Assembly: GCF_006345805.1 (NCBI RefSeq)
Contig: NC_043010.1
Location: forward strand, 372,001-436,000
Length of the DNA: 64,000 nt
DNA from: Octopus sinensis
Taxonomy: Eukaryota
Direction of reading: 5' to 3'
Shown here: positions 12,085 to 58,582 of the stretch, in pieces
Numbering within the stretch: position 1 is the stretch's first letter
Layout: the number at the start of each line of letters is the position of its first letter
Program-made: the position numbers and the translations under genes
Notes under the pieces: generated by a model
Database searches by the model: none
Told to the model about the DNA's origin: nothing
The model's input: only the letters and a program-made list of their open reading frames with translations

Positions 12085-12475
12085 ATCATTATTTGAGGGA
12101 ATATTAATCCTAACTTACAGGGAAAAATTCAATTAAGAAATACTAAATCAAATTTCACACAATATAATATATGTATATTTAAAAATTAGAAAAAAACCAC
12201 CTTTTATCAATTCAAAATGAACAATTAAATTACACCATCTAGAAAATTACATAAATAGAAATATTAAAATTAAAATAACAATAATATACTGATGATTAAG
12301 TAAATTGCAAAAAAATAATAAAAACGTATTATACCAATTATATACGTTTTTATTATTTTTTTGCAATTTACTTAATCTTCAGTATATTATTGTTATTTTA
12401 ATGTTAATATTTCTATTATGTAGTTTTCTAGATGGTGTAATTTAATTGTTCATTTTGAATTGATAAAAGGTGGTT

Positions 12476-12484
<9 letters not shown>
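12085..12484. mobile_element. TA-flanked asymmetric inverted-repeat element (Penelope-like derived, no ribozyme seen)
   Basis: Arms 12185-12329 / 12342-12484; unpaired extension with aacttacagggaaaaat shared with 58363-58587. Confidence 0.7.
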
Positions 12485-12548: not shown

Positions 12549-13027
12549 ATCAACAATCAAGGAACGGCCATAATAGGCCATTCACCCACTAGAAATAACA
12601 GCCAAAGCTTCAACCGCAAATAAAAATCAATTCCGTAAACCAGGAGAAAATTTAAAAAACATTTACCCTGTAATTTCTTATACGATGCACCGTTTCATCT
12701 GCTGTTTAATGGTAAACTAACCTGATTAAATTAAATCAAGAATTGATTTAATTTAATCAGGTTAGTTTACCATTAAACAGCAGATGAAATGGTGCATCGT
12801 ATAAGAAACTACAGGGTAAATGTTTTTTAAATTTTCTCCTGGTTTACGGAATTGATTTTTATTTGCGGTTGAAGCTTTGGCTGTTATTTCTAGTGGTGAA
12901 TGGCCTATTATGGCCGTTCCTTGATTGTTGATGTTGAACTTAAAAATGGTCTATGACTATTTAATTTTTCCCACTAGGCCGCTGGTGGCAAAAAAATTCT
13001 ACAAAATTTTTTGCCACCCTATATTGA

Positions 13028-13030: not shown

Positions 13031-13092
<62 letters not shown>

Positions 13093-13314
13093 CATATATA
13101 TATATATATATATATACCGTATATATATATATATATATATACAAAATAATAGTTATCGCCATACTAATATGGCATTCTTATAAAAATAAGAAAAAAGCTG
13201 TCCGCTTATTAGCTCCATGAGGCCATCGCCTTAAGTTAGCTATTTGATACACAAACTGTATCCATATAACCTTCGAACAAGGGAGGTCAGTCGCTCCACA
13301 CTACTTGACCGGCA

Positions 13315-13356
13315 GCTACGGACGCGTTTCGGAGTATTGCCCCTTTTCAATGCAGC
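13315..13356 (-). ncRNA. Minimal type I hammerhead, U3-A8 core variant (copy 1, first stem I pair mismatched)
   Basis: Minus strand gctgca-TTGAAAA-gggg caata ctcc-GAAA-cgcg-TC-cgtagc. Confidence 0.65.
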
Positions 13357-13675
13357 GTAGCCAGCCAGTAGGTGTCGCTTCCGACAATCTCTGTTCGATG
13401 GTTTTATTTACCTAGTTTCGGTGGAATACATCCACTTGTTTTCAATAATAGAAATATTAAAATAACTAAGTCTCTCTAAAAGAGAACAGCGGCAGCGTTC
13501 CCGGAAAATAATAGTTATCGCCATACTAATATGGCATTCTTATAAAAATAAGAAAAAAGCTGTCCGCTTATTAGCTCCATGAGGCCATCGCCTTAAGTTA
13601 GCTATTTGATACACAAACTGTATCCATATAACCTTCGAACAAGGGAGGTCAGTCGCTCCACACTACTTGACTGCA

Positions 13676-13717
13676 GCTACAGACGCGTTTCGGAGTATTG
13701 CCCCTTTTCAATGCAGC
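13676..13717 (-). ncRNA. Minimal type I hammerhead, U3-A8 core variant (copy 2, intact)
   Basis: Minus strand gctgca-TTGAAAA-gggg caata ctcc-GAAA-cgcg-TC-tgtagc; 6-bp stem I, palindromic stem III acgcgt, GUC triplet. Confidence 0.75.
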
Positions 13718-14162
13718 GTAGCCAGCCAGTAGGTGTCGCTTCCGACAATCTCTGTTCGATGGTTTTATTTACCTAGTTTCGGTGGAATACATCCACTTGT
13801 TTTCAATAATAGAAATATTAAAATAACTAAGTCTCTCTAAAAGAGAACAGCGGCAGCGTTCCCGGAAAATAATAGTTATCGCCATACTAATATGGCATTC
13901 TTATAAAAATAAGAAAAAAGCTGTCCGCTTATTAGCTGCCGGTCAAGTAGTGTGGAGCGACTGACCTCCCTTGTTCGAAGGTTATATGGATACAGTTTGT
14001 GTATCAAATAGCTAACTTAAGGCGATGGCCTCATGGAGCTAATAAGCGGACAGCTTTTTTCTTATTTTTATAAGAATGCCATATTAGTATGGCGATAACT
14101 ATTATTTTCCGGGAACGCTGCCGCTGTTCTCTTTTAGAGAGACTTAGTTATTTTAATATTTC

Positions 14163-14196
<34 letters not shown>

Positions 14197-14198
14197 CC

Positions 14199-14235
<37 letters not shown>

Positions 14236-14254
14236 ATATATATATATATATACC

Positions 14255-14292
<38 letters not shown>

Positions 14293-14302
14293 TGTATATA
14301 TA

Positions 14303-14337
<35 letters not shown>

Positions 14338-14340
14338 CCG

Positions 14341-14734
14341 TTCAGCAAAATTTAGATTCAAATGAATATGGTGCTTTAGTTAGATGCACCAGAATTTTGT
14401 ATGGTGTTATCCATATAAATCCATGGGATGATTATAATCAAATAAGCAACAAGAATAACTTCGGTAATTTGGTACGATTGTTTCACGCTACATCATTTTA
14501 TTAAATGTTGTAAGTATTACAACAGTTTTAAAATGTTGAGCAATCATCAGCCATTAATAGAGGTTTTCCATTACAATTGATATGAAAATTATGTATTAAT
14601 GGAAAATCTCTATTAATGGCTGATGATTGCTCAACATTTTAAAACTGTTGTAATACTTACAACATTTAATAAAATGATGTAGCGTGAAACGATCATACCA
14701 AATTACCGAAGTTATTCTTGTTGCTTATTTTGAT

Positions 14735-14738
<4 letters not shown>
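14341..14738. mobile_element. TA-flanked asymmetric inverted-repeat element with a hammerhead in each arm
   Basis: Arms about 14433-14573 / 14597-14738; left unpaired extension 14341-14432. Confidence 0.8.
14617..14700 (+). ncRNA. Type I hammerhead with long loop II (mirror copy on - at 14470-14553)
   Basis: tgg-CTGATGA-ttgct...agcgt-GAAA-cgatc[a/g]-TA-cca; the consensus of both arms restores cgatcg, each arm has one CpG-type transition. Confidence 0.7.
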
Positions 14739-15063: not shown

Positions 15064-17775
15064 TTACGTAGAACCTCCTCTAATATGTGGCACTTGGTGA
15101 AGAATGGAGTTTGATATAGCTACTCTCATTTGCACCTCTTGCCGTGAGGTAGGTTCATCTGGGACTCTCGACAAGAAGATGTCCAGCTTTTATTTAAAAA
15201 CCGCTACATCTACTTTGTGCAAGTTCCTCAGACTCTTTGGGAGAATATTAAAAAGCTGTGGGCCCTTGAAACCCAGGCTGTTGCAGAAGCTGGTCCTGAA
15301 GCGTGATGGCATTGCTGGGATCTTTGGCACTATGCAGTGTCGTCCCGTTCAAGCATTGGTGTAGCTTACAATGCCAAAATTTGGCACAATTCCTTCCAGG
15401 ATCTTCCAGACATATATTACTGCATACCTTTCCCGTCTTCTCTCCAGGGAGTAGAGTCTTAGCTGTTTCAACCTTTCCCAGTAGCTGAGCTGTTGCAAAG
15501 AGACGATCTTCTTTGTGAATCTTCTCTGGATTGCTTCAAGGTCCGCTGTTAATTTTACACTGGTGGGTGACCATAGCTGTGAGCAGTAATCCAGGCGACT
15601 GAGGACGAATGTCCGCCAGAGGACCATCATGGTTTCCTTATCTCTGGTTCTGAATGTTCTTAGGATCCACCCAGCCAGTCGTCTGCACTTTGTCGCCATC
15701 CTGGTAATGTGCACTTGGAAAGAGGTATCATCACTAATGTTGATACCCAGGTCCCTCACAGACTTAGGCTCTGGGATTGAAATTCCCTGTGGACCGGTGT
15801 ATCCTGTAAGTTTAATATTCAGCCTTGGATGCTGGTAGCGCAGGGCCTGGAATGTTTCAGCATTAAACTGCATATTATTATCCTCAGCCCATCTGTAGAT
15901 TGAGTCCAACTCCTGCTGCAGGTGTGCAACATCGCTGGGGTTCTGTATTTTCTGCGAGACTTTCGTATTGTCTGCTTAGCTTGCCAGAGTGGCTATCCGG
16001 GCATTTGAGGGCATATCTGAGAGGGCCACTATAAAAAGCAGTGGTCCCAAGACAGTGCCTTGTGGAACACTGCTCACTATTTGTGTGTTCATAGAGGTGG
16101 CTCCATTAACCACTACTGCCTGGCTCCTATCTTTCAGGAAGTCATGCAACCACACTCCAAGTTTTCCAGCTATGCCGAGGTCACGTAGTTTGTGGCATAT
16201 CATACCATGATCCACCTTGTCAAAAGCTTTTGCAAAATCAAGGTAGATTACATCCACATTTGATTTGTTGAGTAACTGCCTCAACATCCAGTCATAATGT
16301 TGTAAGAGCTGGGTCAGGCAGCTCCTACCTGGTCGAAAACCATGCTGGGTATCACTCAGCAAGTTATTTTCCTCAAGGAATGCGATTAGTTTCTTTCTGA
16401 CTATCCGTTCCATGACTTTGCTGATGTGTGAAGTCAGAGAGATAGGCCTATAGTTTTTGGCATCTGCTCTACTTCCCCCTTTATGTATTGGGCATATTAT
16501 TCCCTCCTTCAGGTTGCTTGGCAGTTTGCCATTCTCAAGAAAGCTCTGGAAGAGAATCTTGAGGAGTTTTGCCAGGGCATGCTCACACGCTTTGAGGAGG
16601 ATGGCTGGGAAACCATCTGGACCAGCAGCTGAGTTTGTGTCCACTTCATCTATGGTTAGTAGGACATCTTTTTCGCTAATGTCAATACATTCTATTGTAA
16701 CCGCCTCGCTGGTTATAGGTGAGGCGGCAAAGAAGTCCACTGGTTCGTTCACTTGTTTGTGTTCCAACGGGGTGGTAAAGACACTTTTGAATTGGTCATT
16801 CAGCATCTCACTGATCTTAGTTGGACTGTCTGTGAGGGAGCCATCCTTTTGGAGGAGGGGTCCTATCTTGTAGTGCACTGAGACTGTTTCTTTTGCGTAA
16901 TGAAAGAAGGCCTTTGGGTTTGTTTAATATTTTTTATAACCCAGGCTTCTTTGTCTGCTTTCTCCTTCACATAGGATTGTTGCAGCCTTTTTTCGATCTC
17001 CATCAGCGTTGTTTTTAGGCGGGACGTTTCGCTACTTTTAGGATGTTGGTTGAGGTGATTTGCAACCTTCGTCCTCTCATGAGGATCTTCCTGTCTCTTG
17101 GAATCTTGCTCCTATTTGTTTTGGCCTTGTGCTCTGGGACATATTTCTGGCATACAGCTTGCACAGAAGGCATGAAACATTCTAGTTTCATGTCAATGTC
17201 TGGTGTGGTGAGACATTCCGGCCAGTCCTCTCTGAGGATCTCTTTTTGGATCGATTTCGAATTTGCTTTGTGGAAGTTCAGATTGGAGAGATTTCGGGTG
17301 CTTCCTTTAGGCTGTATGTCTCTGGTTACTTTTGGCCCAAACATAGACAGCTCTATTATGTTGTGATCCGAAACTGATCTTCAAACTTGCCTATGTGATT
17401 TGGGGCATCCGGTGGGCAATATGTATTGCATATGACTATATTATGTTGTCTTATGTATACAATTAAAGTGTCACATACCGAATTTGAGTATGTCATCTAG
17501 ACCTGGGGTGTGAGGTCATCTCGGATGTATACAGCAACTCCACCATGGCTCCTTTCCCGTCTGTCTGTTCGCAGTATGGCATAGTTTGGTATGTGTACTT
17601 CTGCGTCCTCTATATCAGGGCTGAGGTGAGTTTCCACAAGTGCTATGCATAGGGCTTGATTGCATGCAGTAAGATCTCTCAGGAAAGAAATTTTGTTTCT
17701 ATTTTGATGCAACAGGCCCCCAATATTTAGTAAAAGTATTGGGGTGGCGGCTGTGCAGGCGTTAGGGGAGGCCAT
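15064..17775 (-). pseudogene. LINE ORF2 (APE endonuclease plus reverse transcriptase), disrupted
   Basis: LLLNIGGL, ALVETHL, RTDR..SHGGVAVY, YCPP, SDHNII (intervening endonuclease segment deleted); YRPISLTS, QHGFRPGRSCLTQLL, YLDFAKAFDKVDH, VPQGTVLGPLLF; catalytic YADD mutated to *ADN at about 15967-15978; frameshifts. Confidence 0.92.
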
Positions 17776-20900: not shown

Positions 20901-22139
20901 CCCTTTTCTCTTATATATTTATATATAGAAGATTATATCTCTGTATCAGTGCAGTTGGATATGTTGTGAATAGATTTATGCAAAAATAAAAGAATAAAAA
21001 AAATTCTCAAAACCAAGGAAAGCAAAAGGAAGGTTCTTTTATTCCATTAAAAAACAAAATCAAACAAAAAAAAACCTTTCCCTTAACAAATAACATTTAA
21101 ATCACAGTAGGGAATGGCTGCTGTCAAATTCACAAGCAATAATTTCTTGAGAGGAGATGCTTAAGATTAGGAGACATCCCAAAATGTAAAAAAAAGTAAA
21201 TGTAAATAAAAAAAAGAATAAGGAGAGGTAGAGCAAGAACTCTCTCCCTACTCTTTGAAAAAAAAAAAAGAAATATATACAAGGAGCAGAACATAAATGA
21301 AAATCAGAATAAAAGAGAAATATATAAAAACGGAAAGAACAAGAACAAAAACGCCAGAATCCTCTGCAGTTGGAAGGGAGACAATTCTGGCTTAACTTAA
21401 ACGTTTGAAAATTTTAAGTTTTTGTTGGCTTTTTGTTTTTTTTAAACGAAGAAATATCAAAAACGAAAAAATGTCTTCTATCATATTATATTGAATCAAA
21501 GGAAATTCATACATTTCTAATTCTCTTTTAGTTTCCTAAAAAAAGATACGAAAAGAAAAAAGTCTGCCTCTCTCTCACTCTCTCTTCTTCCAAATAATGA
21601 CTGAACAGTTGCTAAGTATATCCTTTAATGTATCTTAGCAAGTGTTTAGCCCATTGCTATGTACAAAGAAGGAAAAAAGTAAAATACAAAACAAACAGGG
21701 ACAAAAACCAAACCAAACCAAAGAAACCAACCCTGATAAATGATTCACGTTGTCTTTCCTACAACGTGTAATACCAACATGGATCAGACAAAAACCTTGC
21801 AATAGTGGCCTTTGTTTTTTTTTGTTTTTTTTCTTTTGGAGTAAGAAGAAAAAGTTTGAAATATTTTTTTAGAAACAAACTTCAATATATTCAGCTGTAA
21901 ACAAATTTATTTCTAAGAAGAAAAAAAAAGAAAGAAAAGTAAAATAAAAAAATAAAATAAAAAGGAATTTGAAGAGGAAAAAAATAATTTCTTATATATT
22001 TCTAATATAAAACTGAAATATATTGTTTCTGAATGAAATATTTGAAATATTTCTATTTTTGTTGAAAAGTACTTGAAATAAATTAGAAGAAAGAATATCA
22101 TCTTGTTTAACTGCAGAGTAAAAACAGTTTGATAACATA

Positions 22140-22144
22140 TACTG

Positions 22145-22193
<49 letters not shown>

Positions 22194-22218
22194 AACTACT
22201 ACTACTACTACTACTACA
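22140..22218. repeat. (ACT)n microsatellite immediately 5' of the start codon
   Basis: Direct reading; ends 3 nt before ATG 22222. Confidence 0.95.
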
Positions 22219-22221
22219 AAT

Positions 22222-24183
22222 ATGTTTCCTGTACAGCCAATCTACTCAATGGGGAAACAGTTTAATTTCGACTTCTATGGCAAACCTGCTTTCCCAGCAA
22301 ATGAACATTTGAAAAGCTATGAAAGTGTTTCCCATTTGTCTGATAAATCATTTGGTTTCGACCTTTGTTCGAAACCACCCAATCACAACAACAACTCTCT
22401 TGCCATGAAAAATCATGGCAAGAAATCTATGAACAACTCTTCTTCAGAGTCAATGTTAACTCATTCTGGCAACAGTGAGTTACCAAACAGGGAGGGCTGT
22501 AACCATATCGGTAATAGCAATGTTGGAAACAAACCCTTTAACTGCACTGTTTGCTGCAAGAGTTTCAGCCAGCGGGCAAATCTCAACAATCATGAACGTG
22601 TGCACACTGGGGAACGGCCGTTCAGTTGCAGTTTCTGTCAAAAGTCATTCAGCCAGAAGGCTAACTTGAAAAACCATGAACGTGTTCACACTGGTGAAAA
22701 GCCTTTCAGGTGTCCATTTTGTGAAAAAACCTTTAGCCAGCGAGCTAACCTAAGTAACCATGAACGCATTCATACTGGCGAGAAGCCGTTTGTATGTCAT
22801 GTGTGTCAAAAAGCATTCAGCCAGAAGGCAAACTTGAATAATCATGAACGTGTTCACAGTGGCGAGAAACCATTTAGCTGTACCTTTTGTGGTAAGGGCT
22901 TCTCTCAACGCGCTAACCTTATTTCTCACGAGCGAATTCATACAGGCGAGAAACCATTTGTGTGTGTTGTGTGTCGGAAAGCTTTCAGTCAAAAAGCAAA
23001 CTTGCATAATCACGAACGTATTCACACTGGTGAGAAACCCTTTAATTGTCCATTCTGTGGCAAAGCTTTCAGTCAAAAGGCGAACCTTGTCAACCATGAA
23101 CGCATCCACACTGGCGAGAAACCATATCATTGCGAGACGTGTCACAAAGCTTTCAGTCAAAAGGCCAATTTACATAACCATCAACGTATTCACACTGGAG
23201 AGAAACCATTTCATTGCGATGTGTGCCAAAAATCTTTCAGTCAGCAAGTCAATTTGAATAACCACGAGCGTATACACACAGGGGAAAGGCCTTTCAAATG
23301 TAAGATATGTGAGAAAACATTCTCTCAAAAAGCCAATCTGCACAATCATGAACGCATTCACACTGGTGAGAAACATGCTAGCTGTGATTCATGTCCAAAA
23401 CTGTATGGTCCTCATGGGAAACATAAGGATCCCTGTTCCTCTCATGGACCAGGAAAGCCATTTGATTGTTCATACTGCGACAAGGACATGACTGCAAGAA
23501 ACAGTATGAACCCTCACCAACCCCTATCACCAAATGTAAAACCATTTGTCTGTCCATACTGTGGCAAAGGATTTTGTGAAAAATCTAATTTGAATATCCA
23601 TGAGAATTATTGTCCTCAGAAGAGACTTTCTCTCAAGCATGCCTTAAACAACAGTAGCAGCAGTACCATGACTACCACCACCACTACCAACAACAACAAC
23701 AACAATACCGGTGGTAGTAGCAACGGTAACAACAACAGCAACAATAACAGGAATGGTGAGAATTTCCATGGACAACAAGGCCACAACAATGATGCGACGC
23801 CACATCATACAGATAAACAGATGAGTTGTGATGGATACAAAGCGAAGAATTACTCACCTCGAACAGGCACCATGAAAGATGGTGGTAAAGACACGGTGTC
23901 AGCCCAGAACCCATCTGTTGGCAGGAGCGATGGAGGTTCCTCCCTCAGTCAGTCACAAATGGGAAGAATTCCGCCATTGAACATACCATCGTCCAGAATA
24001 GGTTCCTCGTCGTGTTTCCCCCAGATGACAGCCGGATGGGAAAACAACTACAGCTGGTCCAGAACATTCCCTATGGCGCCACCACGTTGGGGCCAGAACT
24101 GGGCAAATGCAGCCGGTATGCCTCCATTGCAGGCACCGTTAACTTCTGGAATCCGATCACACAAGCCTCGTGAACAGAACTAG
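22222..24183 (+). CDS. C2H2 zinc-finger protein, 653 aa, uninterrupted ORF: 10 tandem canonical fingers, 2 degenerate fingers, 1 C2HC finger, Asn/Thr-rich C-terminus
   Basis: F-x-C-x2-C-x3-F-x5-L-x2-H-x3-H repeats with TGEKP linkers at 22537-23361; first in-frame ATG at 22222 (the track start at 22129 is TTG). Confidence 0.95.
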   Translation: MFPVQPIYSMGKQFNFDFYGKPAFPANEHLKSYESVSHLSDKSFGFDLCSKPPNHNNNSLAMKNHGKKSMNNSSSESMLTHSGNSELPNREGCNHIGNSNVGNKPFNCTVCCKSFSQRANLNNHERVHTGERPFSCSFCQKSFSQKANLKNHERVHTGEKPFRCPFCEKTFSQRANLSNHERIHTGEKPFVCHVCQKAFSQKANLNNHERVHSGEKPFSCTFCGKGFSQRANLISHERIHTGEKPFVCVVCRKAFSQKANLHNHERIHTGEKPFNCPFCGKAFSQKANLVNHERIHTGEKPYHCETCHKAFSQKANLHNHQRIHTGEKPFHCDVCQKSFSQQVNLNNHERIHTGERPFKCKICEKTFSQKANLHNHERIHTGEKHASCDSCPKLYGPHGKHKDPCSSHGPGKPFDCSYCDKDMTARNSMNPHQPLSPNVKPFVCPYCGKGFCEKSNLNIHENYCPQKRLSLKHALNNSSSSTMTTTTTTNNNNNNTGGSSNGNNNSNNNRNGENFHGQQGHNNDATPHHTDKQMSCDGYKAKNYSPRTGTMKDGGKDTVSAQNPSVGRSDGGSSLSQSQMGRIPPLNIPSSRIGSSSCFPQMTAGWENNYSWSRTFPMAPPRWGQNWANAAGMPPLQAPLTSGIRSHKPREQN

Positions 24184-32242: not shown

Positions 32243-32563
32243 TTGCAGCGTGGAAGGTGTTTGTAAGCCTTTAAGAAACACACAAACCCGTTACATTCAC
32301 TTCAACATTTAAATTTAATTTGCCAAAATATTTTCGTCGCTTTCAGACCGCGACCTGTTCACTGACAAAAATATCGTGCTAACAGGTCGCGGTCTCAAAG
32401 CGCCGAAAATTTTTTACAAATTAAATTTAAATGTTGAAGTGAATCTAACGGTTTTTGTGTGTTTCTTAAATGGCTTATAAACACCTTCAACGTTGCAACT
32501 GTTTTTCGTTCCAGCACACGATCTCAGATCAAGTCACTTGCTATGCAAGTACATCTCTGTAAC
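32243..32563. mobile_element. TA-flanked asymmetric inverted-repeat element with a variant hammerhead
   Basis: Arms 32243-32359 / 32381-32498 (several substitutions); right extension to 32563. Confidence 0.8.
32319..32369 (-). ncRNA. Hammerhead-like fold, G3-C8 core variant
   Basis: tttgtca-GTGAACA-g-gtcgc ggtctgaaa gcgac-GAAA-atat-TT-tggcaaa; palindromic stem III aatatt. Confidence 0.6.
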
Positions 32564-58211: not shown

Positions 58212-58582
58212 AAGTGGCTGTGTGGTAAGTAGTTCCAGGTTCAGTCCCACTGCGTGGTACCTTGGACAAGTGTCTTCTACTATAGCCTCGGGCCAACCAA
58301 AGCCTTGTGAGTGGATTTGGTAGATGGAAACTGAAAGAAGCCCATTGTATATATATATATATATATTATATTAAATTAGAGACTTAAGCCAATACATATG
58401 ATTAATTTATATTATTTAAATGATATAAATTAATCATATGTATTGGCTTAAGTCTTTCATTGTTTGATTTGCCTAATAGTGGTTTTGTCTCTAATTTAAT
58501 ATAATATAATATTTTACTATAAAATTGGATTCAATCCTAAATCTGATTTTTCCCTGTAAGTTTGGATTTATTCCCTAATATT

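Follow-up and report, generated by a model that had tools for sequence, protein, structure and literature searches.

The window, a stretch of 64,000 nucleotides from Octopus sinensis, carries at 13143-14165 two arms of a single 362-nt repeat, joined head to head and both running outward into (AT)n. Numbering of the unit here takes the base after the GTC of its hammerhead motif as +1. The long arm (13143..13937, minus strand) comprises 2.2 tandem units and runs from unit +107 to an end termed A (+178), while the short inverted arm (13933..14165, plus strand) runs from unit +3 to a second end, B (+235), and is 100% identical to the commonest natural monomer. Each arm is followed by (AT)n, the target tract occupying 13031..13142 on the end A side and 14166..14337 on the end B side. 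Where they meet, the arms have 5 nt of microhomology in common (13933..13937), corresponding to unit +3..+7 in one and +107..+111 in the other.

The locus is a retrozyme insertion into (AT)n with Penelope-type architecture. As in retrozymes, whose non-coding tandem units of ~170-400 nt each hold a hammerhead, the repeat is non-coding, 362 nt long and tandem, with two motifs in the window arm and multimers elsewhere; as in elements mobilized by Penelope-like elements (PLEs), it has partial tandems, an inverted 5'-truncated copy, a one-sided tail and a microsatellite target. The element is a new retrozyme family, of which the core variant and the PLE architecture were both known already. The family is large, with 826 candidates in the 2.7-Gb genome, of which the best 40 were scored, and young, the best matches being 97-100% identical; the load of rare variants makes a poor clock for its copies and includes assembly errors. 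No PLE open reading frame was recognized beside the fetched copies examined, the loci to which that search extended. Among the contigs of four runs guessed to be RNA, one closed 392-letter contig in X1 fits a circle and a tandem equally; contigs are unable to separate the two or to show RNA ends.

Foreign sequence beside some copies, considered as a possible parent element, proved to be an L1-like LINE (ORF1 with a CCHC knuckle; RT, zf-RVT), putatively of the Tx1 group, which recurs at a single position within the retrozyme unit. The left flank ends at +317 and the right flank resumes at ~+301, an apparent 17-nt duplication. Its 3' part was found in L070, L111, L121, L131, L182, L235, L251 and L278, its 5' part in L012, L139, L190, L221 and L284, and none of these copies showed the two junctions together. 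It looks like a sequence-specific element targeting the focal retrozyme.

Further near-perfect inverted repeats lie beside or inside (AT)n at 12549-13020, 14433-14738, 32243-32498 and 58374-58461, the tail of some being longer on one of the two sides. They are likely insertions of the head-to-head kind from other PLE-type families, and within 2.6 kb around the focal locus there are four insertions of this sort. The window also holds an inverted repeat of 1.4 kb at 96% identity (1-1441, from the window edge), a broken LINE reverse transcriptase frame (RVT_1; 15352-16923, minus) and a frame encoding a C2H2 zinc-finger array (22111-24180, plus).

A Predicted Hammerhead in Each Unit

Each 362-nt unit contains a predicted type I hammerhead ribozyme. 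In the long arm the first copy (13315..13356, minus) has its predicted cut at 13321|13320 and C at +1; the second (13676..13717, minus) has its predicted cut at 13682|13681 and the majority allele at +1. The layout comprises helix I of 6 bp, the core UUGAAAA (U3-A8), helix II of 4 bp, GAAA, a palindromic helix III of 2 bp and GUC. Selected copies have the three helices of type I, with helix I open. Set against the canonical core, C3 U4 G5 A6 N7 G8 A9...NUH, the motif agrees only as the U3-A8 covariant, with A or C at position 7; this covariant is known from schistosome PLEs (PMC4209133, partial text).

Among seven copies hand-picked for their differences, a small and related set, 139 of 140 helix cells are paired vs 24-52% in slid controls. 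The one mispaired cell is that of the C at +1 in the window copy, a rare variant that breaks the closing pair of stem I. Two pairs are altered on both sides and three on one; helix III does not vary and is shorter than the energy model can handle. With T at +1, the majority motif was matched 194 times in the first 150 loci, which partly overlap, and 1136 sites genome-wide match C-then-T across the predicted cut. Rfam hammerhead models returned no match in the window at gathering score and, with E allowed up to 1, none in either L002 or L319; L319 includes a canonical-core motif, which also escaped detection.

A second hammerhead-like motif (13402-13443 and 13763-13804, minus; unit ~+239-281) begins right after end B. 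It has the same UUGAAAA and a hairpin before GAAAC-UAG-GUA, in a spacing that is non-canonical.

The Window Junction

The first motif ends in GTC at 13323-13321 (minus strand), and 13933 thus corresponds to +3. An earlier note on this DNA had described a plus-strand copy beginning at 13933 with letters that it quoted, and a 5-nt microhomology at the junction; both are present, the arms overlapping at 13933-13937. The same note placed the junction 2 nt from the cut, which is correct for the start at +3 but is a minimum, as the overlap puts the switch anywhere from +3 to +8. The cleavage product was said to start with cg, true of the window copy but a rare variant in a family that has tg.

The inference drawn there, that this single junction is evidence of cutting in vivo, fails. 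The junction lies on a self-complementary AGCT common to unit +107, where the other arm starts, far from the predicted cut, and the AGCT palindromes (+79, +107 and +122) rank with the sites at which arms start most often. The identical +107/+3 junction has moreover arisen independently at two other loci, L253 and L254, whose arms differ in length and in their ends, so the window junction is favored by microhomology. Given the overlap and the recurrence, one junction cannot show cleavage. The background chance that one pre-chosen arm reaching +3 starts in +1..+3 is ~0.9%, a figure to be read in the knowledge that the locus was singled out post hoc, in a family numbering hundreds of insertions. 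By itself, the junction as first reported is ordinary. Run-off joined at AGCT and ordinary truncation at AGCT are about evenly matched as explanations of it, with at most a slight lean toward run-off because starts at +3 are ~3x background.

Start Sites Across the Family

The distribution of 5' ends was measured on arms sampled from 190 loci picked solely by their 3' ends: 90 for end A, from the first 100 listed of 291 matches; 70 for end B, from the first 100 listed of 244; and 30 for an end-A variant, from 185 matches. L001-L030 were omitted from the hazard because they had been selected for holding the full unit, and arms were dropped if below 90% identity, duplicated, cut at the 3' edge or carrying other ends, reducing 355 arms to 312 without duplicates and 298 used. 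These yield 293 ends over 96,013 bases at risk, or 0.305% per base. The bin +1..+20 holds 29 ends vs 16.3 expected, and the 20 bases upstream of the cut hold 4 vs 15.2 expected; bins +201-220 (2.25x) and +261-280 (2.14x) are as high as +1..+20, and three others are as low as the upstream bin. Read-through is the norm, 190 of the 192 arms that reach +1 going past it.

At finer scale the background is lumpy. Hot spots at +39, +212, +265-271 and +11 are as strong as or stronger than +1..+3, and the strongest, +39, accounts for 8 of 298 passes. Unit +39-52 (window ~13269-13282, minus) forms a mini-hairpin at which cDNA could fold back and self-prime. An apparent peak at +12 was an artefact of taking as yardstick a window copy with a private deletion and a 1-nt offset, and the commonest natural monomer is the yardstick used here. 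The second hammerhead-like motif was also considered as the cause of the +261-280 excess and finds no support in that role, most starts of this excess lying upstream of its would-be cut.

An exact-pattern search extended the count to the whole genome, each match being read by locus and substitutions, indels and duplicates removed. The base before the cut, C, is present at 1136 of 1159 sites and absent at 23, such that ~98% read through. True starts number 13 among 23 matches at +1 (12 independent), 8 independent among 17 matches at +2, and 12 among 15 at +3 including the window (11 without it). At -1 all three matches are starts, and in each of them the C belongs to the stretch that overlaps the partner arm. 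Starts make up 7 of 10 matches at -2..-6 and 11 of 21 at +4..+8; with these patterns estimated to catch about half, the corrected rates are ~3 and ~3.5 per base, respectively, vs a background of 3.5. There is accordingly no excess at -1..-6 in the genome-wide patterns, and +4..+8 is likewise at background.

The histogram of truncation points that the earlier note had proposed as a check, with uniform truncation as the outcome that would count against it, leaves its idea standing: with the window excluded, +1..+3 contains 31 independent starts vs 10.7 expected (Poisson p 3e-7), a peak width fixed at 3 nt after the counts were known. A negative-binomial test with overdispersion fitted on the sample gives p 0.029 when all junctions are counted and 0.035 when those of low overlap are taken alone. 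Two of the 31 starts (L250 and L274) fall upstream of the cut by gapped BLAST. The excess amounts to ~20 starts in ~1170 passes, or 1.7%.

Could such a peak arise with no cleavage at all, every 5' end being a reverse transcriptase stall joined at microhomology or a cDNA hairpin, and the ribozyme inert or irrelevant in the focal family? The AGCT at +4..+7 is a palindrome of the kind found at the +79, +107 and +122 hot spots, the same junctions turn up more than once, and 4% of the 3-nt windows in the sample are equally, that is three-fold, enriched. Overlap of at least 4 nt is indeed seen in 7 of 8 starts at +2. Against this, the first base of the peak is precisely +1, and none of the starts at -1 is unambiguous; 10 of 12 junctions at +1 have an overlap of 2 nt or less (p 0.05); and 17-19 of the 31 starts, flank joins and insertions included, have little or no overlap where 6 are expected. 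These features, together with the edge that a second family shows at its own predicted cut, make an explanation by stalling alone unlikely, and we consider that the +1..+3 peak probably reflects cut templates. Run-off from a ribozyme-made 5' end followed by a microhomology join, which the earlier note had inferred, is likely a route in the focal family yet a minor one and not the rule, the peak being small against its lumpy background.

A Second Family With a Sharper Edge

A head-to-head insertion of a second family lies nearby at 12190..12479, its right arm starting at 12327 (+3 of its own predicted cut) and its left arm at +18. Longer copies carry a canonical CUGAUGA-core hammerhead with a long helix II. 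The family yielded 1460 candidates, of which the best 40 were scored; the arms, from the window and L310-L350, are these best matches and no random draw, and alignment overruns in L325 and L339 were corrected by eye. The second family and the focal unit's end B have a 16-nt stretch in common.

With the window's own arms excluded, 29 of 39 second-family arms start in +1..+20, none at -22..-1 and 10 further upstream, a distribution drawn with a query that itself began at +18 of the cut, so that matches were chosen for reaching about there. The focal family has 29 of 280 for the same +1..+20 span. Because an AT-like stretch at +12..+20 of the second family can anneal to the target, the count in +1..+9 is cleaner: among the 25 arms extending beyond +10, 15 end in this interval, vs 0.7 expected from the upstream rate. 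The edge in the second family gives strong support for cleavage-defined ends, and the peak in the focal family modest support; the pile-up just after the cut likely records the ribozyme cutting in the cell.

Genomic ends cannot tell the origin of an RNA 5' end, however, and the edge might be real but mark a transcription start or a cut by a protein nuclease. A transcription start at the position of the second family's edge is possible, and pLTRs have been proposed to hold promoters (PMC11167929; PMC3846280, partial text). That such processes should place an edge at the predicted GUC cut in two unrelated families, whose stems show compensatory or wobble-keeping changes, seems quite improbable, and ribozyme cleavage is retained as the preferred source of the edge.

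Near-Obligate Pairing of Two Ends and Shared Alleles

The most robust new observation is the pairing of ends A and B with alleles in common. The family has two fixed 3' ends, ~+175 (A) and ~+238 (B), and 298 of 301 such ends run into AT repeats. Among 135 head-to-head pairs, 122 are A/B, 2 A/A and 1 B/B, and 10 involve another end; A/B thus makes up 122 of the 125 classifiable pairs. Overlap of at least 2 nt, peaking at 2-5 nt, is found in 89 of 121 A/B pairs vs ~17% for random joins.

The two arms of one insertion agree in 560 of 566 polymorphic comparisons, where shuffled pairs are 28% discordant. At site 350, whose two alleles lie on haplotypes with the same load of rare variants, the arms match in 52 of 52 ungapped pairs; of 201 rare substitutions, 13 occur in both arms, and units inside one arm are uniform at 582 of 586. 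Such sharing suggests that a single template was copied from the two strands of the target, and could also come about through one source locus active at a time.

Shared alleles are compatible, too, with an inverted arm made by fold-back self-priming of one cDNA, or from an antisense template, as proposed for rotifer Penelope. Self-priming is favored in PMC3846280 (partial text), and some junctions are centered on palindromes (+39-44, +79, +102, +4). This origin is nonetheless very unlikely for the focal family. The start of one arm shows no clear clustering about that of its partner: 17 pairs of 121 have starts no more than 15 nt apart, where shuffling gives a mean of 11 and a maximum of 24. 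In 72 of 121 pairs the A arm is too long to have been templated by the B arm; the arms also have fixed and different 3' ends, and those in the window start at +3 and +107. Copying of one template from both target strands accordingly remains the reading that we carry forward.

A Model for Insertion

On balance we find it probable that a PLE-like enzyme copies one RNA source from both nicked strands of the target, with a microhomology join, most templates being uncut or re-ligated and ~2% ribozyme-ended. A Penelope-like enzyme would start from the two nicked strands of (AT)n in two priming events on opposite target strands, and at the window locus the two cDNA ends would anneal at the 5-nt microhomology. 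At the ribozyme site most templates would have been left uncut or been joined again, and the few that end at a ribozyme-made 5' end would account for ~2% of passes. The enzyme is presumably a PLE RT/GIY-YIG protein, both strands may well be primed at once, and the template would be a circle or a homogeneous multimer. More tentatively, a Penelope-type dimer may copy a single ribozyme-processed circular RNA on both nicked strands at once, its active sites starting at A and B; rolling round a circular template would give uniform multi-unit arms.

Comparison With Known Systems

Retrozyme expression yields both linear and circular RNAs (PMC7229834, partial text), and retrozymes have been proposed to be non-autonomous PLE derivatives (10.64898/2026.07.22.740005, partial text). 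The focal family resembles the metazoan non-LTR retrozymes of those two sources, so far as their available parts describe them, in its non-coding tandem unit, its one type I hammerhead with a weak palindromic helix III and, as proposed there, mobilization by PLEs with passage through circles. It differs in its U3-A8 core. Insertion ends are not mapped in the available parts of those papers, whereas two fixed 3' ends, head-to-head pairing and the statistics of 5' ends have been measured here. Frog retrozyme dimers cleaved in vitro in one case of nine and did not in eight (10.64898/2026.07.22.740005, partial text).

The hammerhead is close to the variant of the Schistosoma Cercyon PLEs (PMC4209133, as far as the partial text goes), with U3-A8 for C3-G8, G10.1-C11.1, and palindromic 15.2-16.2 and loop 3. 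Unlike in Cercyon, the focal helices are canonical in size (I 6 bp, II 4 bp), with no extra base before helix II, and the motifs are tandem rather than mostly single. The accessible portion of that paper also proposes circular templates for copies of more than unit length.

An inverted 5'-truncated copy, a one-sided tail and a bias to microsatellites are standard PLE features (partial texts of PMC8557442 and PMC3846280). EN+ PLEs, especially Poseidon PAc of Anolis, offer another close parallel (PMC11167929; PMC8557442 and PMC3846280, partial text), with AT-rich or (TA)n targets, partial tandems, an inverted 5'-truncated copy, a tail on one side, two internal RT starts and extension of both strands. 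The focal element departs from the descriptions available there in having no ORF, a tail of ~60 nt vs 30-40, near-obligate A/B pairing and allele sharing. PAc extends both strands in vitro from two adjacent internal RT starts (PMC11167929); it can also transpose in vitro when the ribozyme is absent, and RNA-seq yielded no reads ending at the cut (PMC11167929), unlike the focal family with its genomic run-off peak at the hammerhead. For R2, with its HDV-like ribozyme, the partial text of PMC4370867 describes a ribozyme cut that shapes 5' junctions. The likeness lies in a ribozyme cut defining the template 5' end and shaping genomic 5' junctions; the ribozyme and element class are different, and the cut end is the normal template in R2 vs ~2% of passes in the focal family.

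In the literature covered, namely titles and the starts of abstracts, with supplements and most subscription papers aside, genomic 5'-end peaks at PLE or retrozyme hammerheads are unreported, as is obligate A/B pairing; the novelty of both could be affected by supplementary material, namely the end-coverage plots of PMC11167929 and the supplements to the retrozyme papers.

Implications

Young genomic copies offer a direct test of whether ribozyme-cut RNA serves as template, and those studied here suggest that cut templates are rare in one family and common in another. Near-obligate A/B pairing with shared alleles constrains the origin of the inverted and tailed structures of PLEs, whose formation is listed as unexplained in the part of PMC8557442 available. 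If true, the model of a dimer on a circle would account by a single mechanism for the tandems, the inverted copies and the tails of PLEs. Likewise, if the pile-up does record cleavage, the share of arms that stop at the cut, ~2% in the focal family vs more than half in its neighbor, would be a fossil read-out of RNA processing in the germ line.
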